Origin: Psammoneis japonica
Lineage: Eukaryota
DNA length: 64,000 nt
Direction of reading: 5' to 3'
Assembly: GCA_008632985.1 (NCBI GenBank)
Contig: QPGO01000023.1
Location: forward strand, 1 to 64,000
The first letter of the stretch is position 1. Each line of letters opens with the position of its first letter. Shown piece by piece: positions 13,977-64,000 of the stretch. Under the pieces are notes generated by a model. The model ran no database searches and was not told where the DNA came from. It was given only the letters and a program-made list of their open reading frames with translations. The position numbers were made by a program, and so were the translations under genes.

Positions 13977-13980
13977 GGCG

Positions 13981-21170: not shown

Positions 21171-21588
21171 CGTGTCGAAAGCGATGTCGAGACGAGACGA
21201 TGAGTTTTGTGTTTGATGGGATTTTGTTTTCCATGGGAAAAGTGAGTGGTGAGACCTCGTTTCAATCAAGAGCCAGCAGGCACGAAAATTGCCAGGTGCG
21301 GCTGTGCGTGGTTGAGTGTTCATTGAAATGTGCGCAGAATCCTGCTGAAATCAAGCTGAGCTCCATTTTGCCGACAGCTGCTCTGTTTTGCCTGCAGTGT
21401 CATGTTTCACCACATCCAATCTGAAGATGTTTTGAGAAGCGCTTCGGGGCGACTCTGTTCGGACCGTTGAAAAGAAATTTTTTTGTTCAGATTCGAAAAT
21501 TTGTTTCGGGGTGTTCCTCACTTTTTTGAATGGTTGCATGTGTGCTCACAAAAATCACAAGAAAATTTTATGTTGTGCAAAAGCCTCA

Positions 21589-22776
21589 GGGACACACGGC
21601 ATTTTGTCGCCAATTGCGACATTCCCACAAATGAATTGGATGATTTGTCGTGAAAAACGCCCTTTGAGACAAATTTCAACCGTTGGCGATAAACAAGACA
21701 AAATCATCATTTAATTGGCGATGGCGTGTCCCAAACACACACGTTGCATCAACTGCAGTGCCACATGATGAATTTAACTTTCGGCGAAGACTGCACTTGT
21801 TAATTGGTGTTTTGGCGATTTTGTCGTACGTGCGACAAATTTTGTCGGAAACGACAAATTTTGTCGGATACGACAAATTTTGTCGGATGTACGACAAATT
21901 TTGTCGGACGTACGACAAATTTTGTCGTATCCGACAAACCCCGACAAACCCCGACAAGCCCCGACAAACCCCGACAAGCCCCGACAAACCCCGACAAACC
22001 CCGACAACGTACGACAAACGCCGACAAGAGCCGACAAGAGCCGACAAACGCCGACAGACGGACGTTTGCGACACGCCGACAACGCAACGCTCCCCAACAT
22101 TCAGAAGTGCCCAGTCGCACTGACAAAAGGTGCAGTGCAGCAACACACACCGGTGCATTCCGTTGCACTGTGTAGAAGTGTTGTTGTCCCGGTATTGACG
22201 AGAGTATGGAGACCGCCGAGAGCGGCATGATCGTCGCTTTGCATCATCGCGCAAAAGAGACATGCCGGTAGTGTCAACGGAGACGTTAGCGGTTAGCGTG
22301 TGCGGGGGGCGTGGGTGTTTCGTTCGTGTCGTGACGTGTCGTGACGTGTCGTGTCGTGTCGTGTCTTGTCGTGTCGTGTCGTGTCTTGTCGTGTCGTGTC
22401 GTGTCGTGTCTTGTCGTGTCGTGTCGTGTCGTGTCGTGTCGTGTCGTGTCTTGTCGTGTCGTGTCGTGTCGTGTCGTGTCTTGTCGTATGCCGACAAATA
22501 CGACAAATTTTGTCGTATACGACAAATTTTGTCGGATGAATTTTCGTCGATGACATCGATCGCCAAATTCTGTTAATTACCCCACTTATTGAAACGACAT
22601 CGCCAAAGTTCAGGTTGGTTATAAATGACATTAATCATTTTATAACTTAATTAAACAATGTTTCTGTCCCGTTTATCGCCAACCCGGACATTTTGTCGCA
22701 ATTCGCGTCTTTTCGCGACAAATCATCAATTCATTTAAGAAAATGTCGCCAAATGCGACAAAATGCCGTGTGTCCC
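21589..22776. mobile_element. Foldback-like non-autonomous element with ~130-bp imperfect TIRs and internal CGACA/TGTCG arrays
   Basis: GGGACACACGGCATTTTGTCGC at 21589 and its reverse complement ending at 22776. CGACAAATTTTGTCG near-palindromes and CCCCGACAAA repeats at 21830-22080; (GTGTC)n/TTGTC array at 22325-22490. Confidence 0.8.
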
Positions 22777-37084: not shown

Positions 37085-37399
37085 GATTTTTAACAAAGAG
37101 TAGAGTGTGTGAAGGCCTTATTTTCAAAACTTCATCAAGACTAGAGGAGTCTTGGTGGTGATGAGAACGAACAACTTTGTTGATTTTAGGCGTTGTTCAG
37201 AAGGTCGACGAGGATAAAGGGTGAATAAGACGGATCGATCGACTGTGCCATTGTGTGTTGCTGCGATGCCCATACGATGCGATGCTTGCTCTGCTGGTTT
37301 TTTCTGCGCCGGGCCTTTTTGGGTGTGCGAGCCGCACTGGGCACAGCGCGCGCACAACTCGCAAAATGTCGGCGCGGCAGATTTTGACCGAGACCCCTG

Positions 37400-40300
37400 C
37401 ATGTGAGAATGGGAGCACTGTTCAGCTGGTGAAGGTGATGCCCAACACAAAAAAACTGCCCACCAAAATGATGGGGGAAAACACAGCCCCAGAGCATGAG
37501 GGTGGTGTTGCTGCAGCTGGCAGCAGTGCAAATCGTGTCTGGTTTGACGACCCCAGATGTTGTTTGACCCACGCCAGTCTTGCAGTGCAAAAGGCACACA
37601 TTTGGTGTGTCAAAATGGCAGGTCCATTGGGTGGGTCAGCACTTGCACAGACTGGAGGCCCATGTGTTGCACTCATGCTGGATGAGGGAGGCTACATCTG
37701 CAGAATGGACAGTTCATCCAAAATGGAGTGCAAACGCAATGCCATCTTGCCTGCATCATCTGATGCTCTGAAACAAACTGCGCTCATTTTCAAACACAAC
37801 AAGGTGGGTGGGCTGCCCAGCCAGAGTCTTTGCAGCTGCCCCAGCATGCTTGCAGGGAGGCAAGATTTTGCCTGTGGTGGTTGAGCAACTTTGTCATGGT
37901 GAGCCATCAGGGGTGGAGGTCGAGGTGCAAATGGGAGGTGTTTGTTGGAAGCCATGCACCAGCAGGTGAGACCAAAACCCTGGCAGTGGCTGCACAGTCA
38001 TGCTGCAAGACATGCCTTGCACTCCCACAAAGTGTGCATGGAGCCTCCTGGTGGGGGTCAAACACAAACTGGCTCAACTTGGTGACCATGAAACTGGGGT
38101 CATCCACCCAAGCAGCAACCACACAGCCCACGCCAGTTGGAAATGGCACTGACAAGAGTGGGTGCTTCACTGAGATGCTTGATGATGCAGGGGAACAAGC
38201 GTTGCCGGCATTGGGTGGTGGGTGGTGCAGTGCAGTTCATTTGCCATGGGATGTGCCATGTGCTGCGGAGTCTGGCGCAGCTGCATGTCTGCTCTCAACA
38301 TCACAGCCAAGGAAGAGCTCAGGTGAGCCCTGACATTTGATCTTGTTGCCCCCACCACCCATGCTCTTGTCCATGATGTTGCAGGTGCAAGATGTGGCAA
38401 CATGTCTCATTGGAATCAGCAGCAATGACAGAGTCATCAAGCTGCCACAAGAAAAGCACTTCTTCCCTTGACCACACAGTGCTGTGCTGCAGAGGAGTGA
38501 GATTGAGAGCTTGCAGTGTGGATGATGCAACCAAAGTGCACACTCCACAGCCTGGGAAGATTTGGGGTGTCTTTGGTGATGGGAGGGTGACCAAGGTGAT
38601 TGGTCCACAAGCTTTGAAATGCCTTGCTGGCTTGCATGCAGAAGATTTGCTTGTGAGGTGGGGTTTCTGCAAATGCACTGCTGACATTGGTGCCATGAGC
38701 ACATTTGCTGCCTCTTGAGTGGTGCTGCAAGTGCAAAGAACATCCTGATGTTTGTTGGTCATTCTGTTGATTGTGTGGCACAGGTTTGATCAAGTGTCTC
38801 AACAGAACCTGAGTGGAAGGTTCCATCACAAATGCTTCAAGGAGCTTTCTTGTCCCACTCCACGTCATTCTCAATGAGGTGTGACAACACTCACCAACCA
38901 AACACTGCAGTGCCAGAGCAGGGGCGTCCTGGACACACCTTGTTGGTTCTCACACATGCCCAACCAGTTGGGTGAGCTTGCCAGCTTCCCACCTCTCCCA
39001 GTTGTCCTCAGTGAGAAGTTTTGTCATGTCATTTTGTGCACAGAGTCAGAATGGTGTGGGCTCTGACAGAAATCAAAGAAGAGTTGGATTTCAGCTGTCA
39101 ACCTTCATTGTGAACAAGGAAGCAGTGAACAGTGACAGCAATGAAATTGGCAGTGCAAATGCCAACAGATCACCCCATTCCTCAGTCGGGGAATGGAAAC
39201 CCATCAGTGACAAGAATGGCACATTCTGGTGTGAGTGCCAAAGTGGGCTTGGGTTCAAGTTGCACCAACCGCATGTCTCAGCCATCTGGGTGTCTGAACA
39301 TCTGCGCAGGTCATCACAGGCACAAGACCAGGCACCTCCACCTGGCGCCAGACAGAAAGCTGTCATTGACCCTGGCACACATTTCCCCATTGTTCACAGG
39401 GACACCTGCAATGGTCTCTGCAAAAAGAGACTCATCTGCCATGTAGACAGCAGCAATGTTGCATTGGGTCTGGGCTGGAGTTCTGCTTGCTGTGTCCACC
39501 TGACGTCATCAACACTTGAATGATGGAAACAGAGCAAGAGTGAGTCATTCTTGTTCAAATTCTGTCAGATTGACAGTCTTGATTACCCTCACATCAATGC
39601 GATGAGCTCTCATTGAGCAACAAAAAACATCACAAGGACACAAGTGCACAAGTGGTGACTGGAGTTGATTCTGGGGTCCATTTGACAGCAAAGCCAGAAG
39701 TCACTCAAGAGAATGGATGAATGACATTCACAGTGTCAGGTTGATGGGGAGTGACAGACATCAAAGAAGAGCTGGATTTTGGCAGTCAACCTTTGCAATG
39801 AACAAGGAAACAGTGAAAAGCAACAAAATTGGCAGCACAAATGCCAATGGATCACTCCATTCCTTGGCCAGGGAATGGAAATCTGTGTCACCGGCAGCAA
39901 CAATGACACGTTCTGGTGCAAACACCAAAGTGGGCTTGGGCTCAAGTCACACCAACTGCATGTCTCAGCCGTCTGGGTTCTGGGTGTCTGAGCATCTGGG
40001 CATGCCATCACAGGCATGAGACCAGGCACCTCCACCTGGCCAGACCAAAAACTGTTCCTGACCCTGGAACACACATGTCCCCATTGTTCACAGGGGCACC
40101 TGTGATGGTCTCTGCATGGAGACTCATCTGCTGTGTAGACAGCAGCAAGGTGTTGCACTGGGCATCCCAGGTCTCAGCTTGAGCTCTGCTTGCCATGCCC
40201 ACCTGACATCATCAATGCGCTGGAATGACGGAGACAGAGCAAGAGCGAGTCACTCTTGTTCAAATTCTGTTGGGCTCTGTGACAAACTCAAGTTGGCATT

Positions 40301-43300
40301 GGATGTGGTTGCCATTTCTTGTGGCCCAAGAACAGTTGTGGCAGGCCGGCTGTGGAGTTGATGGCAGAGGAGAAGCTTTCATGCAGAGCAGCCCAGGTTG
40401 ATTTTCAGTCACATGATGAAAATCAATGGACAACAACAAGCAGCAGCTGCTGTGTTTGAGCTGAGGTTGCCACTGTGGGATTTGTGCTCCCTGCTCTAGA
40501 TCCAGGTTGATGGTGCAGTGGGATCACAGTCAAATTGGCTCAAAACCAAAGTGAGATTTGTGGCCCCTCACTGTGGGGCACCAGCGGCACATCTGCAAAT
40601 GAGTCATCAAGAAATGGCAGGACAAAGGACATTGCAACAGTTGCTGCAGAATCCAAACAGATGGGATCTTTGGGAGCAAAGGATGCCACACAACAGGAGC
40701 AGCTGAGTTGCCAAAGATGTTGCCATGTTCTCATCCAGCAGCAGGCTGCAGATCAAACCAAGGCAATTGTTCAATGACAGCAGCTTGTCCAGAGTGAAAG
40801 ATGGACCTGCCACCGCATGTTCCCCACCAGGGGCACGGTGGCTGGGGCATTGTGGGAGTTGCATTTTGAAGACCCAGAGCTCATTTGCAGCCAAACCAGT
40901 TGCCAAGCTGGCAGCTGTGACAGAAGCAGTTTGATTGACACAACTTCAATGTCAACTCATTCAAGGCCTTTTGCAACATGTGCAGAGGCCAAAGTTGAAA
41001 AAATGAAGTTTGTGCTGAGACAATGCCAACCAACACACAGAAACTGTCAACTCACTGGCGCCAAAGCATTTCTGAGCAATTGGAAACTTGGTGACGAGGG
41101 TTTTGCAACATCTTCTGGTTGAGCAGCAGCTGCCAGAAGAAGTGGAGCTGGTTCAGCACGTGTCTTTTTAGATTGTCCAAACCTTTTTGCTGGAACCTGC
41201 ACAAAAGCTCTGTGGGAAATCACTGCATTTGCAACCTGGCTTGGGTTGTTGTTGGCACAAATCATCACACCAGCCCACATGTTTTTCACACACACAGCCA
41301 AAATGTGTGTTCACAAAAAAAAATGCCTTGACACCCAGGTGAAATTCTTAAAAAAAAATGTCTCAACAAAAAACCCAGATGCACACTTTGAAAATTTTGT
41401 GGCACATTTTGAAAATGCACATCTGGGGGGCCTTTGTGTGTGTGGAGTTGGCACTGTGAGTCTCACAGAAACATTGTGCACACCCAGATGGTGCACATTT
41501 TGAAAGTTGTGGCACATGCATTTTGAAGTTGTGTCCTGCAGTTTGCACCAAAAATGTGCAAGCTTGCCATGAAGGAAAGTGCGCGCAGCCACAAAGACAT
41601 CCTTGCAACTGTCACAGGGGCTTGCATGCTTTTCCAAAGAGCTGACAACAGGCAAGTGACAAAGCAAGTGCAGAAGCTGCTCCAGCATCATTTGTTGGTG
41701 CTGCAAATTCTTCTTCTCTGGTGGCTTGATTGATTTCTTCCATGGAACCACTGCACGTGCACTTGCCCAATTTGAGCAAAAATGCAAATGAGTGCAATGC
41801 AATCTGCAATGCACTCCCTTGGTTTCCAGGAATGAAAACATGACAATGAAAAAAGTGTGAGACAAACCAAACAAAAGTGAAAACTTGCTCACATGCTAAA
41901 AAGCCTGCATCACACCCCAGCAAAAATGTTTTCTGCTCTCTGCCTCCACCCTCCACCAAAAAGCAAGGGCATTTGAACAAAAAATTCTTGGCACATGAAA
42001 TTCAACCAACTTGGCAGATTGCCCAGCATCAAAAATCACAGGAACAATGACAACGATCCCACAAAATTTCAAATGGTGGTTTCAAGGCTCTTTTTCACAA
42101 AAAAATGCTCTGTTTTTGTTTGCTGTTTAATTGCACCAACCATTGGCATCCTTTGTTTTCAAGTTTTTTGGTGTGTGTCAGAGTCTGCAAGTTCCACAGC
42201 ACACCCATGTTTGAGGCAGGTCTGCTTGAGTTCTTCTGTGCAGCAAGGTGGCTGTCAGCCACTGCATTTGCACACCACCGTTGCAGGAACTTGGACTCAT
42301 GTGGGCAAGCTGAGCTTGGGGTTTTTTGTCGGGTGTGAGGAGCACCCATGTTTGCCAAGTGCAAGCCTTTGCAGCCAGCAAGTGCAAGCTGCTCTGCTGA
42401 TTCATGGTTCATGTGTGCTTGCAAGGACACCCACATTCAAGCTCTGCTGGCCTCAGATTGGTGTTGTCCTGAAGGGAGCTCATCAGCCCATCTGCACATC
42501 ATTGCCCACTGTGCAGGATCAGCTGAGAGGTGAGGGGTTGGTCAAGCTGTGGAAGGAATGCCCTTGGCAATTTAGTGCATGCAAGACAGAGTCATTGGTT
42601 CTGGGGTGACCAAGATGCTGGCACCACAATTTGCTCTCAGCCGTCCACTCCATGGAGGGGGTCTCGGTGGTGGGGTGTCAGTTGGTGAGACCAGCTTGGG
42701 TGCTTTCTGCAAGCAACCAGTGCACACAGAGGTCAGACAGTGCAAAGCAAGTGCACACTTTGAAGCTCAATGTACTTGCCAGCAAGTGGCGCGCAAGGGT
42801 GCAGACTTCTTGACATGGGGTGGGCCGTCTGCCGTTCACACCATTGGCCATGCTGGCACCAGGGTTGGAGCCAGCAAGTCAAGTGGCAACAGCTGATGAT
42901 GCCAATTGCCAATGTCACAGATGGGGTGGCCTGCAACACTCTTGACAGCAGCTTCTTTGGATGCCACAAGGTTGCCATCTTAGAGTGGGTGCTGTCATTG
43001 GTGGGTCGTGCCATGGTTGTTGATGGTGGTGGCCAACAATCTGTTGTTTTGCACAGGGCAGCTGGCACTGGGCTGCACCCCCCTGCTCTCTTGCACACAG
43101 CCAACAAGTGCTCTGGCACATGGACAAAAAAGGGCTGAGCCACACACAACCAGCAGCAATGCAAACAGCAGATGCATGGGAGAGCATCAAGAACTGCAAC
43201 GGCACCATTGTTGTCAACAGAGAAGCAGAATTTTCACATCTCAAATGCTCTCTGCCAGTGTTGTTGACAACAGTGGGAAAAGGTTGTTTTGTTGTTTCAT

Positions 43301-43480
43301 GGGTTGGCAGAGGGGCCTGGCAAACCATGTCCAGAAAAATTGTGCGGCGGTTTGGCTGCTTCGTCTGGAGACCACCGCTGTGACCCAGAATTTCTGGTGT
43401 TTGCTCCTCTCTTGAGTGCCAGAGTGCAAGTTTCAGAGTGGTGGGACTGGTCAACCGTGATCAAGAGGTGGGTCACTCAC
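37400..43480 (-). mobile_element. Ty1/Copia (CoDi-like) LTR-retrotransposon relic, heavily mutated; LTRs not resolved
   Basis: RT remnants AHGTNVSSAFAETPPHKQIFCM, PRLWSVHFGCII and VLFLWQLDDSVIAA (~38420-38720). RNase H remnants SDDAGKMALRLHSILDELSI and FALQDW (~37570-37770). AHMNHESAEQL (~42400) lies at the GAG-pre-integrase position. Confidence 0.8.
39040..40270. repeat. Two diverged direct copies of a ~530-bp sequence (~39040-39570 and ~39730-40270)
   Basis: Collinear from TGACAGA.ATCAAAGAAGAG to GAGTCA.TCTTGTTCAAATTCTGT; mismatches dominated by CA<->TG. Confidence 0.85.
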
Positions 43481-44068
43481 TTCGTGCAGAGATGAAGGAA
43501 GAGGAGAGAAACGCAATCCAATCATCTCCGATTCCTTCTTTCCCGTCCCGATGCCAGAAACGATTCCATGCCAGAATTGGACATCATGCATCCTTTCTTC
43601 TCACAATGACATCACGCTTTCTTGTGCTTCGCGTGGTGCCGCTGCGGCATGCACGACGGAGTCTACCCGGTACGTACAGCCTCTCTCTCTAGCAGCTACA
43701 GTACTTGGAAAAGACTGCTAAAGCTAACGACCAACATTGAACAAGAGCTAACCTTTCAGCAGTCTACAGCACACCGTGCCATGTGCCATGTGTGGGTGAT
43801 TTTAAGGAGCGCTCTGTTCTCCACTCGTCCTATGAAAATGGTCAACTCCTCCAACATTCCTAGCTTGCTTGCAGCTCATCTTTAGTTGATCTTGGAGGTT
43901 CTATTGTAGCTGCTGTTCTTCTTCAAATCTGATGATGATTCGCTGTTTTGCCGGTGCAAAGCAAACGTGACATCTTTCATTCTGTAGCTGGGATCCCACA
44001 GTAGCTAAAGAGGTACAAACGTTAAAAAAAAAGCATCTCTAAACTGTTGCCATCCATAAATGATAATA

Positions 44069-44625: not shown

Positions 44626-45067
44626 CGTGTCTTTTCAACTGACTGTCAACTTATTCTCTTTGACTTCGCAACGGAGCACGGAGCAGCAGTAGAGTGGATG
44701 AGATGGTGGAGGGAAACTTTTCGATTTTTTTGACAGAATCGATGACGTGGCCGAACGAAGACATGATGACATCAGCATGACCGCGTCATAATTCGTACTT
44801 GTATATTGAATATGTATCAACAATTCGAAACCAAAAAACTCCCTCCGACCTACCATACCCGGGCGACGAGGGAGGGCGGCCGCTGGCATTCGTGGCGGCA
44901 GGCGGAAGGCAGCAACGCGGATTCTTTTCACTTTAGACTTGATCTGGCATCTGGCAGCACAGCCGAAAGTGAACGGTGTTGTTGCCACCTTGCATGGCAT
45001 CAGACTGAGAATTAGAAATCACTGATATCTGGGGTGCAACGCAAACGTGCACATCCCACCGCACATC

Positions 45068-45685
45068 ATGAGCACCCGCGCCACGTCCCTAGCGTCAAGA
45101 CGGGCAAAGACCAAGTTGATAGATCTGTTATTTGAGAAGTCTAATAAATCCAGCAAACCAAGCATTGATCCTCATTCCGCTTCGTTCTCGCAACTGAAAG
45201 CAGCCTATCTCGAACGACTGTTGGAAACGCACCCTGACAAACATCATCATGACGCAAAGGAAAAAGTCGTGCGGCAAGCTCATTTTGTAGAACTAAAAGC
45301 GGCTTGGGAACAATACGAAGCGGTGGCTAAAATTATGGATAAAACTGCATCATCGACATCATCTACTCAGACAGACTTCATCCTATTTGGAGTCGGATGC
45401 AGCTTTTCTGACTCTCCCGACGAAAGGGATCTGAGAAGCGAAATTACAGATCAAGCTTGCAGAGGGTGGTTTTCCTCTGGCGCAATTGAACAGGAATCAC
45501 GTAATGATAGAGTGGGCGACAGTGTAAGGGCTGATAACAAACAGCAACCGGTTGTGTCGTTGTGTGATGAAGACATGTTTGTCCAAGATGACCGTGAAGA
45601 TTCCTCTCAAGATTCAACGAGTGACGATGACAAACCGCGACGCCGATTCTTAGTGGATCACCCAGCACTCTTAAGAAAGAGCTAA
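45068..45685 (+). CDS. J-domain (DnaJ/Hsp40-like) protein
   Basis: LKAAYLERLLETHPDKH...FVELKAAWEQY. Confidence 0.85.
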   Translation: MSTRATSLASRRAKTKLIDLLFEKSNKSSKPSIDPHSASFSQLKAAYLERLLETHPDKHHHDAKEKVVRQAHFVELKAAWEQYEAVAKIMDKTASSTSSTQTDFILFGVGCSFSDSPDERDLRSEITDQACRGWFSSGAIEQESRNDRVGDSVRADNKQQPVVSLCDEDMFVQDDREDSSQDSTSDDDKPRRRFLVDHPALLRKS

Positions 45686-45744
45686 AAACGATCTTGCATG
45701 GCTTTCTTCCTCCGAGGATAGAGGATTCGATACCTCGCTACACC

Positions 45745-46155
45745 ATCGAGTATCGACCTATTCGGTCAACTGGTACAATTCCATTTGGTGTTTTGAGTGG
45801 CTCAAAATGGTTTTTCCAGGTACCGTAAGTTGCTCGCAAGACTCCCAGTGCTTATAAGGTACTCCCTGAAGCGTTCTCGTCTTGTTCAATTATGTATGAT
45901 CTTGCACCAAGTCGCAGAGAGAACAGGCGTGGTCTGGCTGCTTCTTGAGAAAGGTCTCACGATAGGTATCGTCGATATTTTCCCGTGGATGGAACAAACG
46001 AGACGTGTAGAGTACAGAAACAGCTCATGTTGTTTATTTCGTGCATTCTCTGCGCCAAAGCCTCTGGAGAATCAAAGTCCATGACTAACAGTACAGAGTG
46101 ATTGTTTGGTGAAAACAAGTTAGCTTGCGGAGCGCCCATTACGACAGGTATCAAT
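45745..46155 (-). pseudogene. Truncated duplicate of the fucosyltransferase 3' end
   Basis: Near-identical to ~54060-54478 (IPVVMGAPQA...), with indels and no 5' part. Confidence 0.85.
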
Positions 46156-46516
46156 TCCTTACACTCTACTTGTACTTGCTCTATTAGAAGTAAAATCGAG
46201 TTTACTCGAACCGGTACAACAGACTATGAAGCAAATATCTCGACTGTACTTACGATCTTCCTGGGTTTACTGTAGTAAAAAAATGTAAGGTCATAACTTA
46301 GGTCATAACAAAAAAGGTGGGGCATATATAAAAGTCATTGAGATTGAAACATTATTGCCTTCCAAAATAATCTCCGCTATGTGTTTCAAAATAACCGCCT
46401 GGCTCTAAAGCGACACAAAATGCACGATCCTTTTCTTGCCTCTCACTTTTTCTTTACCGTAGGCCTGACTCGTTTAGAAGAGGTACCCATTAGCCTTTGA
46501 TACTTTGATCAGCATC

Positions 46517-47834
46517 ATGTTGCTTCGTACCGCATTGCAACTAGCGGCGTTGCTTCTTGGTACCGTGTCTATTGCGACAGCCCAAGAAGGTAAGGAAGGT
46601 TTCATTTTCATTGTTTACAGACTAGCACGTTTGGCCGTTTTTTCAATGACTCATACATTTAATGCCCTCAAATCTAGGGACCGATGTACTCAAGCTCCGC
46701 AGTGATTTCAGGGAGCTGTCCGAACGGCCCAGCAAACCCAGGCGCGTTCCGTGTGGGGGACTTGAAGAAGCTCGTTACAAAGCCTGTGCCGGGAAGATGT
46801 GCATGCAATGCAGCGCGAAAGGCTGCTACGATGATGGAACGCCAGACACTAGTTGTAACGCATGGTCCTGCGCCACGTTTCAGTTAGCATGCCCCGAAAA
46901 GCGCGAGAGGCCCAAAAGGAAGAAAGAGGAGGTGGGAGACGTATGCGAATATTGCAAAACTAAGTGCGACCCCGAAGACCCAAGTTCCAGGACTTGCAAG
47001 CGAGCTTGCCGAATGTGTAAAGCTCAATCAAAGAGAATGAGAAAGAAACCAGAAGAAATGAACGAAGAGGAAGAAAAGGAAAAAGAGGAAAAGACAGAAG
47101 ATAAGCCCTCTATGAACCGCTGCGTCAAGTGCAGAATGTGCCGAACGGAATACGGTCCCACAACCGAAGAATGCCTACGCGTCTGCAAGGAATCAGGCTG
47201 TCCCGACGTCATTTCTGTTAAAGTTTGTGACGAATGTGTAAGGTGCGAGCGCGATGGCCCCCCTGATGGAACGTGTGACAGGGTATGCGGTGCCTGTAAA
47301 AAGGAAGAAGAGAAGGAAACAAAGCTTGGTAGACCCATCGTTGACCGTTGCTTCAAGTGCAGGATGTGCCAGAAGGAAAACGGTGCCGGAACCGAGGAAT
47401 GTCTGCACATCTGTCAGGAATCACAGTGCCCCAATGTCAGACCGGTCGACATTTGTGACATCTGCATGGAATGCAAAGGCGGCGAGAGCGAGTATTCTCC
47501 CGAAACCTGCGACAGGGCATGCTCATCGTGTGGAAAAGAAGTAACTCCGCCCGAACCATGCTTTTACTGCACCCGTTGCAAGAATGCCCATCTCACGACA
47601 AGTCCTTGTGAAAGAGCTTGCTATTCGTGCAACGAAGATTCCGAGAAAGTGGAGCGCCCTCAGCCGAATCCTTGTGTTGACTGCCATCATTGCAGAAAGG
47701 AAGGAGGCGGTGAGAAATGTGCTGCTTTATGCACGGACTGCAACAGGAAGCCCGACATGCGTCCCCAGCTCCCACATGATAAGAAGGGATCTGTTCCCAT
47801 GGCCTACGTTGATCGTCGTCCCGATTCACCATGA
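46517..47834 (+). CDS. Secreted Cys-rich repeat protein; intron 46590-46677
   Basis: Signal peptide MLLRTALQLAALLLGTVSIATA; a phase-1 GT-AG intron joins AQE-GTDVLKLR; repeated CxxCxxC...CxxxCxx(x)C modules with K/E-rich linkers. Confidence 0.85.
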
Positions 47835-48199
47835 TCAAATGGGAAATGAAACGAGAGCCGATTGTAACGCAATTAGATGATCAAGAATACTCAACTGTCA
47901 TTTTGTACAGAGGCATTGGAAAAATTCAATGACATAGCATGTGTAACGACATTAAGAGGAACGAGATCTAGTCGTAGCTGGGAGCTTCATTGTGTCTCTG
48001 TCTAAAGGGTCATCCCTGCTCTCACGAAACAAAGTTGAAAGGGTGTTTCATGCTGTCAGCACACCACATCAGGCACACCTCACACACCTCTCTCTATCTA
48101 GAGCTCTAGCTGCTAGCTAGACTCTGTTTTATGCTGTCTCTCTGGAGAGAGAGAGGGCAGAGTGGGGAGTGTGTCTATGGACTTACTTCTTGTCTACAG

Positions 48200-51100
48200 A
48201 CAGACCGCTTTGCGGAGCTTTTCAAAAAAATCTTTTGGACAGCTGCCAACCACATCTCTTTGAAATCTTCTCATTCATCTTTGCCAGCATTTGTGTTGTC
48301 ATGCTCAAGAAATTGTTGAGAAGTGAGTCACACCTTGGGCTCAAGCAGTTTCTTTCCACACTTGTGTGTGTTTCATGTTCCAGACAGTGCAATGGGTGCA
48401 TGTCAGAGATGACACATGAGAGTGTGCTGGTGCCACAGTCATCACCCCAAAGACATGAGTCACAGTGCCAACAACGCCTGCTGGTTGCAGGAGCTGCATT
48501 TTCAACAGCATCAGCAGCCACAAGGGAGGTCAAAATTGCCCATTGAGAATGTCACATGGAGTCAAGAGAACAGAGGTTTCAGCACCAGTGTGTCTCACAC
48601 ATGACTCTGGTGCATTGATGCCAACATGTTTAGAGTGTTTCACACACCAATGCAGAAACATTGCAGTGAGAAATTGGCAGTCCACTGCAAAGAAGATGGG
48701 CCATTCATTGAGTCAAAATGAAGCTCCAGCATTGATCAAAGCAGTGCTTGACAATGTCATCATGGACTGTCTGGCAAAAGACTCTTTTTTGGCATCTCAG
48801 CAGTTGCAAGACACACAGGAACAAGTGCAAAATGGTGGCCTTGTTGGGTTGTTCTTGGCTTTTTCAATGTGTTGACTGTTGAGAAAAAATCCAAGGTCAT
48901 CTGCAGTCTGGAGTGTGGCTGGCAGCAGCAGCAACAACAACTTTTTGGCAGAGCTGGCCTTCATCAAGAACTGGATTTTTTTCGTTTCACAGACCCCAGC
49001 TCTGTCAAGGATGTGTCATCTTTTGAATTTTTCCATGATCTCTTTGGCTCTCACTGTTTTTGACAGCAGGAAAAGGGAAAAAAGCAAGGGGTTGTTCTTG
49101 AATGAAATCAGAACTTGATCCTCAGATGAGTGCAGTTGTCCAGCATGTGGCAGCAAAAGCTCCCACAGCAGCACAGGAAGCTGGCCTTTGGTCAACAGAT
49201 GTGGCAGATGGTGCTTCTGTGGTTGATTTTGCATCTGCTGTCAAGACAATCTTTGGAATTTTCAACATGATCTTTGTTGAGGAGGGGCTGTTGTGGTGTC
49301 ACAACCTCCTTGCACTCAAACAATTCTGCTTTTTTGTTTTGTGGATGCAAATGCTGTGGATCTTGTTGAGATCTTGTGACAAGCGCTGCTGCTCTAGTTT
49401 GACAATGCTCAGTTGAATTGTCAATGGCAACAAAGTCTTTGGAGCTCAGCAATTTTTTGACTGCTGGCACAGCTCTCTCAGCAGTTGAACAACCCACCTG
49501 TTGCATGAAAAATTGCACTTTGTGTGAGCTTTTTATGTTGGAAATCCTTTTGTGGTGTCATTGTGACCAAGCACACTTGCATCACCTTGCATGACGCTGA
49601 TGTGGCAACAAACTCATGTTGTGTTTGCTGGCATTTCAAGAGCTGTACAAAAACCAGGCTTCCTGAAGAAGCCAAAAAAGAGGCTGCAGATTTGATTGGA
49701 CCATTGCAGAAGCTTCCAGTTTAAAAGCAGGAGTTTCAACCAAAATTGCTGAAATGTGTGCACTTCTGTTGACAACATCACTCTGTTTCAACTGGGCTTG
49801 TGCCAATTGACAATGAAAGTTCCCAACGTGTGACTCACAAATTTTGCAATTTTCAGTTGTCATTGACTGCAAATTTCAAATGCAGTTGGATCAAGCAGGG
49901 GCCTAGCAGATGCATCAGAAAGCCATCCACTGGCAGCAAATGTGATTTTCAAGAAAAGAGCACATCAAATGACAGCTGTCATCTTCAACACTGTGATTGT
50001 TGCTTGTTCGCTGGCCATTCAAAACAGGCAAATGAGTTTGCAAATGCAGGCAATTTTGCCATGGCCTCTCCAATGCTTGGCACTCTTGCTCACTCTGAAG
50101 ATCTGTGGGAAATTCAACATGATGCAATTTTCACCTTCCACCAGGAGGGTCAGTGGTGGGACCCAACCAAATGGCTCACAACTGAATTGCCAGACATTGA
50201 CAACAAAAATCCCCACAGACAAAATGTGAAGCAGTGACCCTGGCCCCCAACTTGAGGGCAAAATGTTTTGCAGTTGGGTTGGTCAACCCTGCCACCAAGT
50301 TAGAAGCACTCATGCAATTGGCCCACATTTGGGGCAGTGCAAGTCCACACCAACAGGGCTGTCTCAATGTTGTGCTCAGTGCGCATCACACACAGGGGAG
50401 CTGATGCACTGAGTGAAATGTGACGTTCATCAAATGTTTTCTTTTTAAGGTGTGCACAGAAGTTGCACACAGCAGCACAACAATGTTGGACAGACAACAG
50501 TTGTGCACCAGCTGCAGTTGCTTTGGGGTGATGAATTGCTTTTGCTGACACCAATGGTGACATTTTTTGATGCTCTCAGAGGATGACTTTGCAGTGGACA
50601 CTTGACACAATGCTTGACTGCACTGTTGAGAACACAAACATGTAAAAAAAGTCCTCCAGATGAAGTCACAATTGTTCAACAATGAGTGCACAACAGCAAC
50701 TGGTCAAAAAACAGAGCTCTGCATTGGCGCAATGTCATGGCTGCTGTCAAATGCAGGTCAATGGCAGGGACTTTCATGACTGAGCACACTCTTGAGCATG
50801 ACAAACCAAATGTCTGTAAAGACAAAAGACTCTTGGACACATCCCTGACATGACAATCATTGCAACAACATTCCTGTTGCTGCCATTTGGCAATGAGGCA
50901 CGCAGCACTGCACATTTCTGGTGCAGCGCAAAATCCTGAAAACAAAGTTGCCTTGCACCCCCCCCCATCCTTCTTCTGTGGTTGCCTCAAACAAAAAAAA
51001 TGAAGGCATTTTTCCCAATGTCTGGGTGTCCATTGATTTTTTGCTTTGGTTCAAACATTGGCCACATGGTTGTTCCATGGTGATTTTGCTGTGTTTGGTT

Positions 51101-53270
51101 CCTTGCACCCTTGGGAGAGAGAGAAAATGACAAGTGATCCATGCTCAATGTTGTTGGTTTTGCTCCTCAACTTCCATGTCTGAAGTTGGCAATGGCTTGC
51201 CATCCATCCACTTGGACAAGTCAATGCCAGCAATGCAGCGCTGCATGGGTGCCAAGTCAATCAAATTTGCTGGCTTTGTCACAGCTGAAGCAGAAGTGTT
51301 GGTGCTGCTCAATGGTCTCCAGTTTCCTGATCAATGGCTGTTTGCAAACATGATCTGTCATGCTGGGGGGGGGTCAACAGACAACTAAAAACACCATCCA
51401 TGCTGGCACAATCAGGCACAAAGAAAATGCCAGTGTCTTCCCCAAGACACCCTTTTTTTCAATGTGGTTGCCAATCTTGCTGTTGCCATTGTTGATTGGC
51501 TTGTTTGAAGTTTGAATTTTTTGATGAATGTTCCAGATGTGATCATTGATGAGTTTTTCCTTGCAGGAAAATCCCTTGTGCAGGCTTCAAATGACAAACA
51601 CTTGTTTTGATGAATGTTCCACATGTGATCACTGATGAGTTTTTCCTTGCAGGAAAATCCCTTGTGCAGGCTTCAAATGACAAACACTTGTTTTGATGAA
51701 TGTTCACATGTGATCACTGATGAGTTTTCCTTGCAGGAAAATCCCTTGTGCAGGCTTCAAATGACAAACACTTGTTGCTGGCACACCAAGGTTGTTCTCA
51801 ACAATCCAGGGCTTTTCCTTGAGCAACACAAGCTCCTGTTCTTCCAACTTGCCAAAAATCTTACAGGGTTTTGACATCTTTTCATGCAATGCAATCTTCA
51901 GAAGAGGGCGGGTTGCAGGCATGATGCGGATCTTGGTGAGAAGTCCAGACAAACCAGTCTTCATCATCTCACAACAGTCAATGTGCCAAGTGGTGTTGTC
52001 AGTGGCACGGTCAGTCAGGCAAACTTCTCAGGGCATCATGTTGTCTTTGAGAAACACAGCACCTGCTTTTCCTCCTTTTCCCTCAGGATTCATTTCTGGG
52101 TGGCCTCCAGCCAGATTGAGCAGATGGCAGTGCTCACACAGCCAAGTGCAAATGAAAGAAATGGACTCACAAGCACGCAGTTTGCAAAGTCAAAGCCCTG
52201 GGTCAGACCACAACAGCTCAGGTTTCCTGATTCTGGAGATGTTCATGCTAAAAAGGGATCCTGGTGTGCTTTGCCAGCAACTGCAGTGCAACACTTGGCA
52301 CTCTTGTTGTGGAGCACATGGGCAACAGCCCAGCTTCTGCTGTGCACTCACACACAATGGACTTGGGTTGTGTGCATTGTTGAACCGACAAGTTGATGTT
52401 GCAACAGGGCACACACAATGGAGCACATTGTTGAACCGGCAAGTTGATGTTTCCAAAAGGGAGTCCCATGAGGTTTCCTGTGATGCTTGTGTGCTCACCT
52501 TGGCAGCCTCTTTTCTTGTGGCTGTGGCATGCCTCCTTGGTGTCAACGTGAGCTCCATTGCTGCTGCAATGCAGGCCGTCTTTTGACACACAGATCAACA
52601 ATCATGCAAACCAAATGCTTCACTCCAAAGAGTGAGAGCAAAACACACACATTCACTTGACATGGACAACATCGTCAAACACAAAGAAATGTTTTTCCTG
52701 TCTGCGTCAGAGGTCAAAGATCTCCTCTTCAACACACCCGGGTCACAACTTGCAGTGTCCCGGTCTCTCTCATCTCGCAATGCTCCAACAGGCATTGTGC
52801 ATGTGTCGCAGCAAATGCCTTCATGGCTGCAGCATGGAGCTTGTCAATGTCAGGAGTTATCACAAAAGGATCTCCACGGTGGCCAAGTGAGCCCCATCTG
52901 ACCTCACATTGGTGAGGATGAAGACAAGTTTTTGGCCCTTGTTTTTTTTTTCTTGACAGCCTTTTGCTTGACATGCAGGCAAGTTGAAGAACTCATCATT
53001 GAATCCAAGCCCCAGGGGCTCCATATTGGGAGGTCGGTCTGATGGATCTTGGGACAGCAACCCCCCAGTTTGGAAAAGACAAATCAAGCAGAAAGCTGGA
53101 AACGGGAGCATCACAGAAACCATCATCACAGCAAATGGATTCTTGCACAAGGCAAAAGAACAACAGGTCTTTGATGTGCTTTGTGATGCTTCTCTTTCTT
53201 GCAATGTGATCTGTGATCTGTCAGCATGTTGAGCTCATGATCTGGCAGCACAGCCGAAAGTGAACAGTGC
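48200..53270. other. TpA- and CpG-depleted relic block, family not identified
   Basis: Roughly 15 TA dinucleotides in ~5 kb by eye; few CG; internal tandem repeats. Confidence 0.65.
51520..51775. repeat. Three tandem ~85-bp near-identical repeats
   Basis: TTGATGAATGTTCC..ATGTGATCA.TGATGAGTTTT(T)CCTTGCAGGAAAATCCCTTGTGCAGGCTTCAAATGACAAACACTTG three times. Confidence 0.9.
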
Positions 53271-53436
53271 ACCACTGTTGTTGTCACCACCTGCTGGCAT
53301 GGCATCAGACGACTGAGAATTGTAATAACTGAAATCTACAGTGGCTTCTCTCTAGATATAGAGAGGGTGCAAGACGTGCAAAAATTTCGAAATTCTAAAA
53401 AGAAAAAGGGACAATAGAATATAAGGACACATCCCC

Positions 53437-54000
53437 ATGAGCACCCGCGCCGCGTCCTTAGCGTCAAGACGGGCAAAGTCCAAGAAGATAGATCTGTTGT
53501 TATTTGGCAAGTCTAATCTATCTTGAACGACTTTTAGAAACGCACCCTGACAAACCGCATCAGGCTCATTTTTACCTGAGTGGAACTAAAAGCGGCGCGG
53601 GAACAGTACGAAGCGGTTGCTAAAATTATGGATAAAACTGCGTCATCGACATCATCTATTCAGACAAACTTCATCCTCTTTGGAGTCGGATGTAGTTTTT
53701 CTGACTCTTCCGGACGAACGGGATCTGAGAAGCGAAATTACAGATCACGCTTGAAGAGGGTGGTTTTCCTATGGCGCAATTGAACAGGAATCACGTAGGC
53801 CCTAGTGAGAAAGCGGGCGACAGTCTTAGGGCCCTAGGGCCCTAGGGCTGATAGCAAACAACAGCCGCTTGTGTCGTTGTGTGATGAAGACATGTTTGTC
53901 CAAGATGACAAGAAAGATTCCTCACAAGATTCAACGAGTAAGATGACAAACCGCGATGCCGATTCCTGGTGGATCATCCAGCACTCTTAAGAAAGAATCA
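53437..54000 (+). pseudogene. Broken duplicate of the DnaJ gene at 45068-45685
   Basis: ATGAGCACCCGCGCC start and collinear sequence, with deletions, frameshifts and GGCCCTAG insertions. Confidence 0.85.
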
Positions 54001-54065
54001 AAAATGATCTGTCTTCCCTTTCTTCCTCCGATGACAGAGGAGTCGATGCTTCTCTACTTCATCAA

Positions 54066-55655
54066 CTATCGACCGATTCGGTCAGCGGGTACAATTCCAT
54101 TTGGTGTTTTGAGTGGCTGAAAATGGTTTTTCCAGGTACCGTGAAGTTGCTCGCAAGACTCCCAGTGCGTGTAAGGTACTCCCTGAAACGTTCTCGTCTT
54201 GTTCAAATATATATGATCTTGCACCAAGTCGCAGAGAGAACAGGCGTGGTGTGGCTGCTTCTTGAGAAAGGTCTCACGATAGGTATCGTCGATATTTTCC
54301 TGTGGATGGAACAAATGAGACGTGTAGTACCGAAACAGCTCATCATTGTTGTTTATTTCGTGCATTCTCTGTGCCAAAGCCTCTGGAGAATCAAAGTCTG
54401 TGACAAACAATGCAGAGTGATTGTTTGGTAGAAACAAGTGAGCTTGCGGAGCACCCATGACAACGGGTATCAATCCCGTTAACAACGGCCGATGCAGCTT
54501 CTCCGTCACATAGTAGTCGCAGTTGGAGTTTTCAAAGGACAGGTAGAATTTGTGCGTTCGTATCTGAGCGTCTGCAGCGGCCTTCCAGTCATTGTCGTGT
54601 CGTTTCACGTCAATTTGAGCATTGTTGAGACACTTGCCGTAACTCTTGACGCCAATATGCTTCATGAGCTCCTCGACATAGTCCTGCCGGTGATTGGTCG
54701 TTTCACATCTTGATGCAATCCAACCAACTGGAAACTTGAAGTTTCGCTCTTCCACCGGAACGAAATTGTCCTTCGCTTTTCGAAACATGTTAAGCGTGTT
54801 CGTGAGGAATGGTCTGGGAAGATCGGAATCTAATCGGAAGGAAGAACTAATGTCAAACACCTTGGACTCCTCGTATCTATAGCAAATGGAAAAATCTTGC
54901 ATTAGACAAACAGCCAGGTTCTTGGCACAGCATGGTGCACACTTGAGTAAGCAAATTCGTACGTACTTTTCTAATGGAGTGAGATTCGGATCGATTTGAT
55001 TAGCACTTTCGGTTTGTACCAGGACAAACAATTGTCCACAATACTTTGGCGGAATGCGATTTCGATTCACTTCCCAGTACTCATATTTCTTACGATACAA
55101 CACAGCAACAACATCAGCTTCTATTGCCCGACTTTCATCCGTAGTATGGCTACACCGATAGCATCGAAACGTCCTGTTCCGCGAGAAGAACATTTGAATA
55201 AAGGGAGCGTGGCCCTTTATTGGAACATCCTGGAAATAAATGAGTGTCTTTCCTTCTTTTCGTCGTTGGTCAACCTTTGTTTGAATGTGAGTTGGTCGGG
55301 GAATACACTCAAGCTGAGGTGGAGAGGCGGCCGTGAATTCCTCCATTGATTGCTCACGCGGCTCGATTTGCAGTGGCCGCAATGATAAGCTGCTACTATT
55401 CAGTTCTTCAGTGGAATTCCAATCTTCATCAGATTCAGAGTGCTTGTCCATAAGCGTTCTACTTTGAATGTGTCCATGATGCTTCAAAATGGACGAGTCA
55501 GGGGAATGATGATGGGGATGAATGTAGATCAACGTTGCGATTTGCCACGTCAAGGCGGCGACAATTACTTTAGCAGGTAGCCTTAGATTAGACCTTGTGC
55601 TGGTATTGCTGCTACAGAAGCGGCTAGCTTGTATCGTAGCTTTATCGACCATCAT
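54066..55655 (-). CDS. Alpha-1,3/4-fucosyltransferase (GT10); in-frame 90-bp intron 54966-54877
   Basis: Type II membrane anchor; SSFRLDSD; HKFYLSFENSNCDYYVTEKL GT10 motif; IPVVMG. Confidence 0.92.
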   Translation of the reverse strand: MMVDKATIQASRFCSSNTSTRSNLRLPAKVIVAALTWQIATLIYIHPHHHSPDSSILKHHGHIQSRTLMDKHSESDEDWNSTEELNSSSLSLRPLQIEPREQSMEEFTAASPPQLECIPRPTHIQTKVDQRRKEGKTLIYFQDVPIKGHAPFIQMFFSRNRTFRCYRCSHTTDESRAIEADVVAVLYRKKYEYWEVNRNRIPPKYCGQLFVLVQTESANQIDPNLTPLEKYVRICLLKCAPCCAKNLAVCLMQDFSICYRYEESKVFDISSSFRLDSDLPRPFLTNTLNMFRKAKDNFVPVEERNFKFPVGWIASRCETTNHRQDYVEELMKHIGVKSYGKCLNNAQIDVKRHDNDWKAAADAQIRTHKFYLSFENSNCDYYVTEKLHRPLLTGLIPVVMGAPQAHLFLPNNHSALFVTDFDSPEALAQRMHEINNNDELFRYYTSHLFHPQENIDDTYRETFLKKQPHHACSLCDLVQDHIYLNKTRTFQGVPYTHWESCEQLHGTWKNHFQPLKTPNGIVPADRIGR

Positions 55656-63049: not shown

Positions 63050-64000
63050 CGCAGTAGATGCTGGGTGTTGTCAGCTGTTCTTGTTTTTGCAGCGCAACAA
63101 CCATTTCAGGTTTTCTCCTCGCGCCACCATCCGTCCGCCGTCCGCAGGATTTGAGCCGTTTTGGGTGCTGCTGTGAGGCCCAACCATGTGGTGCCACGTG
63201 TAATTACGAAACCCCGTTTTCAATTTTCAACAAAAAGCACACATCGACACCCACTGATGTCTTGCGAATGCAAAGTTCCCGACAAATGTTGGGGTCACAA
63301 GCAGAGGGTCGCATCAGCCATGGAGCCATCACCAAAATTTGTCCTTTGTTGCATTTTCCCAAGCAATTTTTTGGTGCTCCAAGAAAAGCCGGCTCTCCAC
63401 CCTCAAATGCCCAACACCACCATGAACAATGTGTGTGCCTGGTCCATTCTTACAAGGCACTGGTTTAAAGTCTGGGAAACCAAAAACACTTGTGTCTTCA
63501 GCATTTCTGTCTCTGCTGGGGGGTCAAACTCTGGTGGGGTGCAATGAAGTCAAATGCGGCTGCTGGACCCTTTCCCAAAACTGAGACACTTCAACGCAAA
63601 ACCCGCTTCACAGCTGTGCTCTGTTTTGCAACTCATTGTTGACCTCATGACAACTGCATTTTGCCTCTTTCATGCCATGCTTTTGTGCTTTCAGCTTCTG
63701 CATTTTGCACCCATCTCTGCTTCCAATCTGGAGCAAATGTGCACAACTTCCACTGGCCAAAAAATGTTCTGTGGGGCAACAGCATCAAACAGCACACCAT
63801 TTTGTCAACGTTGCTTCTCTGCTCTTTTTTCACCACACACCAAGAAACTGTTGACAAACTTTGCTTCACTCTGTGTGTTTGTTCTCTCCACAGTTTGGCT
63901 CTCTCCAAGTCAAAAATGCCAAGACGGAGCAGCGCTGCAGTTGCTTCCTCAAAGTCACAAAATGTTCCTTGTTCCTTGGAGCCAAGGGGTCAACCAGCAC
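63050..64000. other. Start of another TpA-depleted relic block
   Basis: TA nearly absent after ~63210 and CG declining; runs off the window edge. Confidence 0.6.

Follow-up and report, generated by a model that had tools for sequence, protein, structure and literature searches.

The 64-kb stretch of diatom nuclear DNA analysed here (the window) contains blocks that have lost nearly all of their TpA, and we consider it fairly probable that they record hypermutation of TpA in place, at the level of DNA, by a mutator that prefers 5'-TAY-3' and is probably a deaminase, with decay of CpG as a separate process. A sequence-selective mutator with this preference had been proposed in an earlier note on the same DNA, and the proposal is upheld by the contexts of surviving TpA, by the orientation of the products and by the composition of a Helitron open reading frame (ORF).

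TpA-depleted blocks

All counts cover positions 1-64,000 of the forward strand of Psammoneis japonica contig QPGO01000023.1 (GCA_008632985.1). A two-state HMM on TA density called five depleted blocks, 31.1 kb in total, with sharp edges and with normal genes in between (Table 1). TpA in the blocks stands at 3-6% of expectation (o/e 0.03-0.06; that is, 94-97% has been lost), CpG at 12-59% (o/e 0.12-0.59) and TG/CA at 1.6-2.0 times expectation; the corresponding o/e values for normal segments of the window are 0.56-0.67 for TA and 0.95-1.08 for CG. In each of the five blocks the loss of TpA is more complete than that of CpG.

Most block ORFs are without a recognisable family. The block of main interest, much of which is at single-copy depth in the run contigs, gave 0 Pfam hits in any ORF of at least 90 aa. 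This is a warning for annotation: blocks that are rich in Cys and devoid of Tyr and of TAA/TAG stops present long spurious ORFs, which family searches miss.

Table 1. Depleted blocks, repeats, ORFs and allelic sites of the window
Feature	Position	Strand	TA obs/exp	CG o/e	Details
Depleted block	1-4813		12/310	0.30	Extends past window start; internal repeats 6-220/440-635 with CTAG/CCAG pair
Largest depleted block	7241-21689		49/874	0.59	N gap 14977-15550 inside
Helitron_like_N ORF	17086-18447	-			454 aa, E = 2.5e-22; inside block 7241-21689
DUF6570 fragments, two ORFs	18200-19206	-			Upstream of Helitron_like_N ORF, same strand
Depleted block, second one named in earlier note	37274-43663		12/394	0.19	
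Two diverged repeat copies	39039-40270	+			78% identity; word depth 7,000-14,700 against ~60 nearby (contigs)
Depleted block of main interest	48196-53322		15/375	0.12	TG 1.80; CA 1.96
Surviving GTAC	49646-49647	+			GTGC in run X1; TA/TG polymorphism, same locus
CA in window	49861-49862	+			TG in run X1 (flanks T..T); alleles resolving one ancestral YR step oppositely
Surviving CTAG	49904-49905	+			CCAG in run X1 contigs
Depleted block	63056-64000		4/63		Extends past window end

Contexts of surviving TpA

About half of the surviving TpA in two of the blocks had been said to lie in YTAR, with RTAY survivors rare. Both observations hold: YTAR accounts for 8 of 15 survivors in 48200-53270 and for 7 of 12 in 37400-43400, and RTAY for only 3 of these 27. 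Across all blocks the 92 survivors comprise 45 YTAR (49%), 26 YTAY, 15 RTAR and 6 RTAY, whereas the 1342 TpA of normal DNA comprise 253 YTAR (19%), 328 YTAY, 370 RTAR and 391 RTAY (29%); the enrichment of YTAR has a Fisher odds ratio of 4.1 (p = 6e-10). The true baseline for YTAR is therefore 19%, and not the quarter that had been taken as the chance expectation. Unequal survival of the NTAN contexts is shown here at the scale of the 64-kb window. The bias persists when block edges are trimmed by 200 bp (YTAR 45/86 against 221/1261, p = 2.6e-12; RTAY 6/86 against 377/1261, p = 7.5e-7), when repeat copies are collapsed to unique 10-mers (YTAR 43/88 against 247/1303, p = 1.7e-9), and when TAAA/TTTA sites are left out (18/51 against 162/1135, p = 2e-4). 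TACG makes up 10 of the 39 surviving TAC, so a TA is not lost more readily when CG follows it.

The strength of the preference was estimated with a per-strand multiplicative model in which survival depends on the base that follows the A. Survival factors are 0.54 for A, 0.36 for G, 0.18 for C and 0.06 for T, corresponding to relative loss rates of 0.62, 1.02, 1.69 and 2.83, and a likelihood-ratio test of context against no context gives chi2 = 80 with 3 df. Loss follows the order TAT > TAC > TAG > TAA, TAY being lost ~2.7-fold faster (Y:R rate ratio 2.66), while the T 5' of the target A is absolute. The preference is therefore modest and graded rather than absolute, as had been claimed from an exception in the internal repeats of the first block, where CTAG near 110 and CCAG near 523 are indeed found.

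A second-shell effect, overlooked in the earlier note, is seen one base further out. TAAA/TTTA, the most resistant context, provides 41 of the 92 survivors (45%) against 207 of the 1342 sites in normal DNA. Estimates of the orientation of this effect are contradictory (f = 0.25 and 0.67), and part of the 41 could be new TA arising from run-extending substitutions rather than escapes.

The context bias might be physical. A lesion or base flipping may be easier where the target A is stacked against a 3' pyrimidine and hardest in A-tracts, and either adenine methylation with subsequent loss or, separately, biased repair would also fit; TAY would then say little about the acting protein. Such an explanation draws support from the graded order T > C > G > A in place of an all-or-none rule, from the presence of a second-shell effect and from protection being greatest at TAAA/TTTA (41/92 against 207/1342). 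Nevertheless, the absolute 5' T and the sharp limits of the repeat blocks call for a targeted agent in any case, and a 94-97% loss limited to blocks is not given by stacking alone. We regard a merely physical origin of the bias as unlikely, and favour a targeted mutator that is itself sequence-selective.

Orientation of the preference

The survivors fit a preference for RTA equally well, which the earlier note did not remark, and product data are therefore needed to decide between RTA and TAY. Bookkeeping of products by single flanking bases is distorted, because 3' pyrimidine flanks interconvert; we therefore relied on transition-invariant purine/pyrimidine skeleton classes, with the assumption that the ancestral composition was that of the window's normal DNA. 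In the Y-[YR]-Y class, TG rises from 0.324 in normal DNA to 0.530 in the blocks and CA from 0.265 to 0.361. The fraction of events in which the TAY strand was edited, f, is 0.85 (bootstrap 0.71-0.97) and exceeds 0.7 in five of five blocks; in other words, YTGY/RCAR is the product at ~85% of the YTAY/RTAR sites that disappeared. If strongly asymmetric CpG decay is assumed (g = 0.75), f becomes 0.62 (bootstrap 0.47-0.73); the contexts of surviving CG allow g of only ~0.4-0.6. The TG-CA asymmetry tends to increase with CpG loss from block to block.

The Helitron_like_N ORF, whose frame is kept open by the disappearance of TAA/TAG stops, has no Tyr among its 454 residues, as compared with 3.5% in 17 homologues. 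Cys is raised to 6.2% against 2.3% (28 residues against ~10 expected, ~18 extra), while His, at 3.7% against 4.2%, shows no excess (17 against ~19 expected). With Tyr gone, Cys up and His normal, conversion of TAY to TGY must have been much more frequent than conversion to CAY. The closest relatives (best of 952 hits) are 35-40% identical. Only eight conserved-Tyr columns were usable for polarising changes at the level of codons. In two of two Tyr to His changes a purine precedes the codon; the five of six such cases cited in the earlier note, which gives no coordinates for them, were not recovered.

Polarised single changes in asymmetric contexts fit TAY in four cases and do not in one, with three of the four possibly from one repeat family. 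The 32 TG/CA discordant sites of repeat pairs, which are not independent because the 12 pairs overlap, show no flank enrichment (R__Y 7, Y__Y + R__R 18, Y__R 7); this comparison has little power, and the result fits a 2.7-fold preference. The skeleton products and the Helitron ORF both favour TAY over RTA.

Many survivors could instead be new TA, made after the process had stopped by C to T or G to A changes in CA/TG, especially run-extending ones near A/T tracts, in which case the YTAR excess would be a creation bias. At a TG+CA : TA ratio of ~70 : 1 in the blocks back-mutation has candidates, and 45% of survivors adjoin AA/TT. Transitions, however, preserve the skeleton, and Y__R makes up 23% of YR steps in the blocks (1767/7529), not 49%. 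The excess also remains without tract sites (18/51 against 162/1135), the product asymmetry and the Tyr to Cys excess do not depend on survivors, and two survivors are polymorphic towards TG/CA. Creation of new TA is, in our view, an improbable source of the YTAR excess, which we continue to attribute to the TAY preference of the mutator.

Evidence for probable mutation in place

Skeleton counts for Y-YR-Y/R-YR-Y/Y-YR-R are nearly equal in depleted DNA (3940/1822/1767) and normal DNA (4055/1824/1850), and within skeleton classes TG+CA has gained as much as TA+CG has lost. Twelve repeat pairs within the window differ by 195 transitions against 80 transversions; their dinucleotide differences include 41 TG/CA, 40 CG/(TG or CA) and 15 TA/(TG or CA). 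The two copies at 39039-40270 differ mainly by TG<->CA swaps at corresponding dinucleotides, which, as judged from the alignment, are evidently the footprint of ancestral TA or CG sites resolved independently. Further copies of this high-copy repeat were sought by scanning metagenomes once for 18 of its conserved bases; the 25 loci found all matched over ~19-24 bases, were not similarly TA-poor and were set aside as chance matches.

The window was also compared with contigs of one sample, the public run X1, which covers 3.4 kb of the same locus. Here 2 of 11 surviving TA differ, which is no more than a hint of a raised de novo rate, and only three differences are unrelated to TA/CG; X1 may be the assembly's own source data, and the comparison is therefore no independent proof of the blocks. 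An unmutated paralogue of 51156-51968 in the run contigs contains TA, and has CpG where the window has TG/CA; 78 candidates included no related protein, and nine ORFs gave no Pfam family (E <= 1). For the five blocks, a runs test on the order of TG and CA gives z values between -1.5 and +1.0, and the local TG-CA skew has an sd of 1.14 in blocks against 1.26 in normal DNA. Both strands have been mutated independently, without strand runs.

ADAR-like A-to-I editing of repeat transcripts, fixed through reverse transcription and re-insertion, would share the 5' U/T neighbour (ADAR prefers 5'UAG, according to a review table). The favoured 3' base here is nevertheless T or C and not G, a DNA transposon (Helitron) is among the targets, TG and CA products are interleaved without strand runs, allelic differences lie in place, and ADARs are metazoan according to the Discussion of a preprint on TpA hypermutation (10.64898/2026.01.13.699255); we hold such an origin to be very improbable. 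That the blocks are foreign DNA with intrinsic avoidance of TA and CG, a matter of composition and not of mutation, would suit the many block ORFs of no recognisable family but is scarcely credible when repeat copies in the window show TG<->CA at the same step, a protein with conserved Tyr has none, and the paralogue of 51156-51968 contains TA and has CpG opposite TG/CA in the window.

Discussion

The reading that we prefer, hypermutation of TpA in place, can be set out as follows. In repeat and transposon DNA the A of TpA would be changed to G on either strand (TA to TG or CA), near to saturation, by a mutator that would read local sequence, acting on A before a pyrimidine ~2.7 times faster than before a purine and least readily on TA in A/T tracts (TAAA/TTTA). 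The likeliest agent would be a polynucleotide adenine deaminase, converting A to inosine, which is read as G, and directed to silenced repeat chromatin in a manner mirroring fungal RIP. CpG loss in the same blocks would most simply be a second, slower process, the decay of methylated CpG. We infer, as did the earlier note, that the mutator is enzyme-like and may be linked to TadA.

More tentatively, it is possible that diatoms have a RIP-like defence in which a chromatin-targeted, T-A-Y-specific DNA adenine deaminase erases from transposons their TpA and, with it, every Tyr codon and TAA/TAG stop. If so, the same signature in a rhizarian alga would make the system old and widespread in SAR, and its enzyme would amount to an adenine editor that evolved to act on chromosomes; a natural deaminase with chromosomal DNA as its substrate would be of interest to base editing. 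Our analysis extends TpA-directed hypermutation, previously the subject of a single preprint on a chlorarachniophyte, to diatoms, which are major primary producers, and shows that transposons are targeted. Favoured T-A-Y, resistant TAAA/TTTA and the involvement of both strands without strand runs provide a fingerprint for candidate deaminases in vitro.

Comparison with known systems

Diatom transposable elements are CpG-methylated through DNMT5a, as reported in PMC9998398. Decay of methylated CpG resembles what is seen in the same blocks, where CpG is at 12-59% of expectation and the products are TG and CA; change of CpG to TpG/CpA in transposon DNA was found in the blocks, in repeat pairs and in X1. 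It accounts only for the CpG half of the pattern, and not for the loss of TpA.

In most substrates of eukaryotic ADAT2/3, A34 is followed by a purine. The TadA/ADAT2 motif listed in the review table is 5'ACG at anticodon position 34, and that of ADAR is 5'UAG. The mutator may resemble TadA/ADAT2-ADAT3, for which the target A has a 5' U/T and, in the substrate of TadA, a 3' C; in the blocks the 5' T is absolute and 3' C ranks above the purines and below 3' T, and the DNA that is changed is chromosomal, with both strands affected. With ADAR it shares the A-to-G outcome and the preference for 5' U. It differs in acting at the DNA level, in the lack of strand-specific clusters and in favouring 3' T/C over the 3' G of the tabulated ADAR motif (rate 1.02 for G against 2.83 for T).

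Fungal RIP introduces repeat-directed, saturating transitions, C to T at CpA, so that TpA is created; it acts before meiosis on duplicated sequence and requires the RID/DNMT4 enzyme. The diatom blocks share with it the repeat-directed saturating transitions, a dinucleotide rule and skewed-dinucleotide blocks, but they lose TpA and gain CpA/TpG, which is the reverse of the RIP reaction.

A literature search of a limited collection found no report of TpA-specific hypermutation in diatoms. In Bigelowiella natans, a chlorarachniophyte (Rhizaria), TpA-specific hypermutation of integrated viral DNA is described in a bioRxiv preprint (10.64898/2026.01.13.699255). According to its main text, mutation-accumulation lines show a TpA to TpG/CpA spectrum de novo (231 mutations), the de novo rate is elevated in cultured lines, the spectrum is almost free of G:C to A:T, and an ADAT2 homologue is proposed as the agent. 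The diatom blocks lack this near-absence of G:C to A:T, since CpG o/e is 0.12-0.59 and CpG<->TG/CA differences are common; this component at CpG is probably a separate process. B. natans viral regions retain many TpA (rho 0.45), whereas 94-97% are lost from the diatom blocks. The TAY preference and the co-depletion of CpG are features of the diatom blocks that the main text of the preprint, in which 'context', 'trinucleotide', 'flanking' and 'CpG' do not occur, does not mention. Nevertheless, as far as the preprint describes B. natans, the two systems are alike in that TpA only is changed, to TpG or CpA according to strand, in regions of foreign origin, leaving TpA-depleted, CpA+TpG-enriched clusters with transposon-type domains; in the window TpA to TpG/CpA changes are seen in the blocks, in repeat copies and in X1, and are confined to five discrete blocks that include the Helitron and the high-depth repeat.

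Nine segments of diatom nuclear DNA

All counts refer to the 64-kb window, which was segmented with a 1-kb dinucleotide table and a two-state HMM on TA density into five depleted blocks (31.1 kb in all) and four normal segments (32.3 kb). TG and CA reach 1.6–2.0 times expectation in the blocks; in the normal segments TA observed/expected is 0.56–0.67 and CG is about 1. The TA-normal parts carry long unbroken ORFs for ordinary eukaryotic proteins (an aldo-keto reductase, a UCH protease, an ankyrin protein, a fucosyltransferase, a sulfatase, Mak16 and an HSF-type factor). The best named relatives of the aldo-keto reductase, at 64–80% identity, are all diatoms (including Thalassiosira, Nitzschia, Ditylum, Skeletonema and Cyclotella), and the window is therefore taken to be diatom nuclear DNA.

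The island between the first two blocks could represent either a host gene or an insertion spared by the process. Loss of TAA and TAG stops alone may explain long frames in the largest block, such as the 582-aa one. The Cys-rich ORF is the stretch best covered by X2 (X1 and X2 are public sequencing runs whose contigs were compared with the window); TG is locally raised there and TA is not depleted.

Depleted blocks and other features of the window
Feature	Positions (strand)	TA obs/exp	CG o/e	Remarks
Depleted block	1–4813	12/310	0.30	
Island, 2.4 kb	4814–7240			TA and CpG content normal
ORF, 435 aa	5111–6415 (−)			within island; without Pfam family
Depleted block	7241–21689	49/874	0.59	
Open frame, 582 aa	8275–10020 (+)			weak U-box match, E = 2e-4
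Helitron ORF, 454 aa	17086–18447 (−)			Helitron_like_N, E = 2.5e-22; DUF6570 upstream, same strand
Depleted block	37274–43663	12/394	0.19	
Repeat copies	39039–39565, 39729–40270			
Direct repeat, ~1.2 kb	44949–46158, 53240–54477			85% identity; in TA-normal DNA
Cys-rich ORF, 394 aa	46650–47834 (+)			many regularly spaced Cys pairs, acidic linkers; without Pfam family
Depleted block	48196–53322	15/375	0.12	
Tandem array	51519–51776			86-base unit, three copies, 95–98% identical
Depleted block	63056–64000	4/63	0.41	

TpA is lost by mutation in place

Transitions preserve the purine/pyrimidine skeleton, so that the numbers of Y-YR-Y (folded with R-YR-R), R-YR-Y and Y-YR-R steps are invariant under them. 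These numbers are 3940, 1822 and 1767 in depleted DNA as compared with 4055, 1824 and 1850 in normal DNA, and inside each class the gain of TG and CA equals the loss of TA and CG, as predicted for conversion of TA and CG to TG/CA in place. Twelve repeat pairs in the blocks, which overlap and are not independent, differ by 195 transitions and 80 transversions; their YR-step differences are 41 TG/CA, 20 CG/TG, 20 CG/CA, nine TA/TG and six TA/CA. The repeat copies of the third block show repeated TG–CA swaps at shared steps. The targets include the Helitron and a repeat with a contig word depth of 7,000–14,700, against ∼60 in its surroundings.

An X1 contig of 4,229 bases, aligned to 47349–51576, differs from the window at 11 positions, 10 of them within the depleted block. 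Two of the 11 surviving TA that it covers (49647, 49904) are TG or CA in X1, 49861–2 is TG in X1 and CA in the window, and three CpG of X1 are CA/TG in the window; three further differences are unrelated. As X1 could come from the data used for the assembly or represent another haplotype, this demonstrates variation rather than an independent replicate of the blocks. Some 300 bases outside the block, position 47899 is TA in X1 and CA in the window and shares its 7-base context with the 49861 swap; the limits of blocks may be blurred or still shifting.

The second copy of the direct repeat begins at the right edge of this block. The copies differ by 94 substitutions, including eight TA/TG, three TA/CA and 13 CG/(TG or CA) steps, and a milder version of the block spectrum may be acting on them. 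In contigs of X1 (depth 56) and of X2 (depth 393), 51322 is followed directly by 51876; the 553 bases left out contain the tandem array, and the contigs run on into TA-containing flanks. Where they match 51156–51322 and 51876–51968 they have CpG at positions that are TG/CA in the window: a short part of the block has an unmutated paralogue. A search for a protein relative and a Pfam family of this paralogue found neither.

Surviving TA sites are biased in context

The earlier note had reported an excess of YTAR, which has no TAY on either strand, and a rarity of RTAY among the surviving TA of 48200–53270 and 37400–43400, and had proposed a 5'-TAY-3' target preference. In these stretches 15 of 27 survivors are YTAR and three RTAY. 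The bias is confirmed over all blocks, where the 92 survivors comprise 45 YTAR, 26 YTAY, 15 RTAR and six RTAY, as compared with 253, 328, 370 and 391 among 1342 TA in normal DNA (YTAR odds ratio 4.1, p = 6e-10; RTAY odds ratio 0.17, p = 2e-7). The YTAR excess persisted when 200 bp were trimmed from block edges (45/86 versus 221/1261, p = 2.6e-12), when identical 10-mers were collapsed to one (43/88 versus 247/1303) and when TAAA/TTTA sites were removed (18/51 versus 162/1135, p = 2e-4).

The 16 contexts are fitted by a survival model in which the A of each strand contributes a factor that depends on the base 3' of it: 0.54 for A, 0.36 for G, 0.18 for C and 0.06 for T (likelihood-ratio chi2 = 80, 3 df, against no context). 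The Y/R form of the model gives a rate ratio of 2.66. Given this neighbour, the +2 base adds an independent effect (likelihood-ratio chi2 = 45.4, p = 8e-10), survival relative to A being 0.27 for C, 0.32 for T and 0.60 for G, and TAAA/TTTA makes up 41 of the 92 survivors as compared with 207 of 1342 TA in normal DNA. This second-shell A-tract effect is an addition to the rule proposed; as to its side, the two usable classes conflict (orientation share f 0.25 and 0.67). Five surviving TA (7830, 12407, 19430, 19505 and 63205) lie in the hexamer TACGAA, with TA and CG both kept, possibly a single repeat-family motif that is somehow protected.

The products orient the preference

Because TA is self-complementary, a rule favouring a pyrimidine directly 3' of the A and one favouring a purine at the second position on its 5' side leave identical survivors, an ambiguity that the earlier note overlooked. 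The products separate the two rules, since loss of YTAY yields YTGY under the former and YCAY under the latter. In the folded Y-YR-Y class, TG rises from 0.324 in normal to 0.530 in depleted DNA and CA from 0.265 to 0.361, while TA falls by 0.161 and CG by 0.141. The share f of lost YTAY/RTAR sites resolved on the TAY strand is then 0.85 (bootstrap 0.71–0.97) if CpG loss is evenly split, and 0.97, 0.73, 0.80, 1.06 and 1.12 in the five blocks. The corresponding CpG-loss share, g, is the weak point of f, which becomes 0.76 (0.62–0.87) at g = 0.6 and 0.62 (0.47–0.73) at g = 0.75; across blocks the TG/CA asymmetry tends upward with CpG loss. Surviving CG contexts (RCGY 170/362, YCGR 131/425, others 347/940) imply only a ∼1.5-fold context effect, and hence g of roughly 0.4–0.6.

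Codons in the Helitron ORF provide a test independent of skeleton balance. Tyr, which makes up 3.5% of residues in 17 aligned homologues, is absent from it; Cys number 28 (6.2% versus 2.3%) and His 17 (3.7% versus 4.2%), indicating that the ∼16 missing Tyr became Cys (TAY to TGY, by change of an A with a 3' pyrimidine) and not His. The eight columns with Tyr in at least 40% of homologues hold three Cys, two His and three Phe; the base before the codon is a purine for both His, and A, C and C for the three Cys, a pattern expected from the TAY rule though seen in very few cases. Polarised single sites in asymmetric contexts of repeat pairs fit TAY in four cases and oppose it in one, their independence being doubtful. 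The proposed TAY preference is thus supported, and now oriented, by f and by the Helitron Tyr to Cys change; it is moderate.

A candidate agent

The process acts in place on DNA, is specific for TpA, affects both strands in discrete regions and is graded by context. TG and CA products are mixed randomly along the blocks (runs z −1.5 to +1.0), so the strands are hit independently and long strand-coordinated tracts are absent; the spread of local skew does not exceed that of normal DNA. On balance we favour an adenine deaminase, which would convert A to inosine, read as G, and would be steered to silenced repeats. The graded context ranking and the protection of A-tracts could equally be explained by how readily the target A leaves the base stack, in place of contacts with particular bases; this bears only on how the motif is read, and a targeted agent would be needed either way. 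TpA loss is near-complete in every block while CpG loss differs widely among them; the latter is probably a slower decay of methylated CpG. CpG methylation of diatom transposons via DNMT5a has been reported (PMC9998398).

Comparison with known systems

The chemistry of fungal RIP is opposite in direction. ADAR, as described, agrees in its 5' neighbour but not in its 3' neighbour (5'UAG), and differs by strand clustering, which is absent from the blocks. The anticodon context of TadA/ADAT2, given as 5'ACG, is compatible with the 5' T and favoured 3' C found here, but in the window 3' T is favoured above 3' C; TACG, with 10 of 39 surviving TAC, is not preferentially lost. A full-text literature search, RIP in diatoms included, found no diatom report of such a signature. 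In Bigelowiella natans, 230 of 231 de novo mutations in two viral inserts were reported as A to G or T to C, all on TpA, clusters poor in TpA and rich in CpA and TpG carry transposon domains, and an ADAT2-like deaminase was proposed (10.64898/2026.01.13.699255); the words 'context', 'trinucleotide', 'flanking' and 'CpG' do not occur in the main text of that preprint (10.64898/2026.01.13.699255). With enzyme and targeting signal both putative, the process in the window is of a kind described once before, in another supergroup lineage; here it occurs in a diatom, as a new member of that kind, with a sharper sequence rule.
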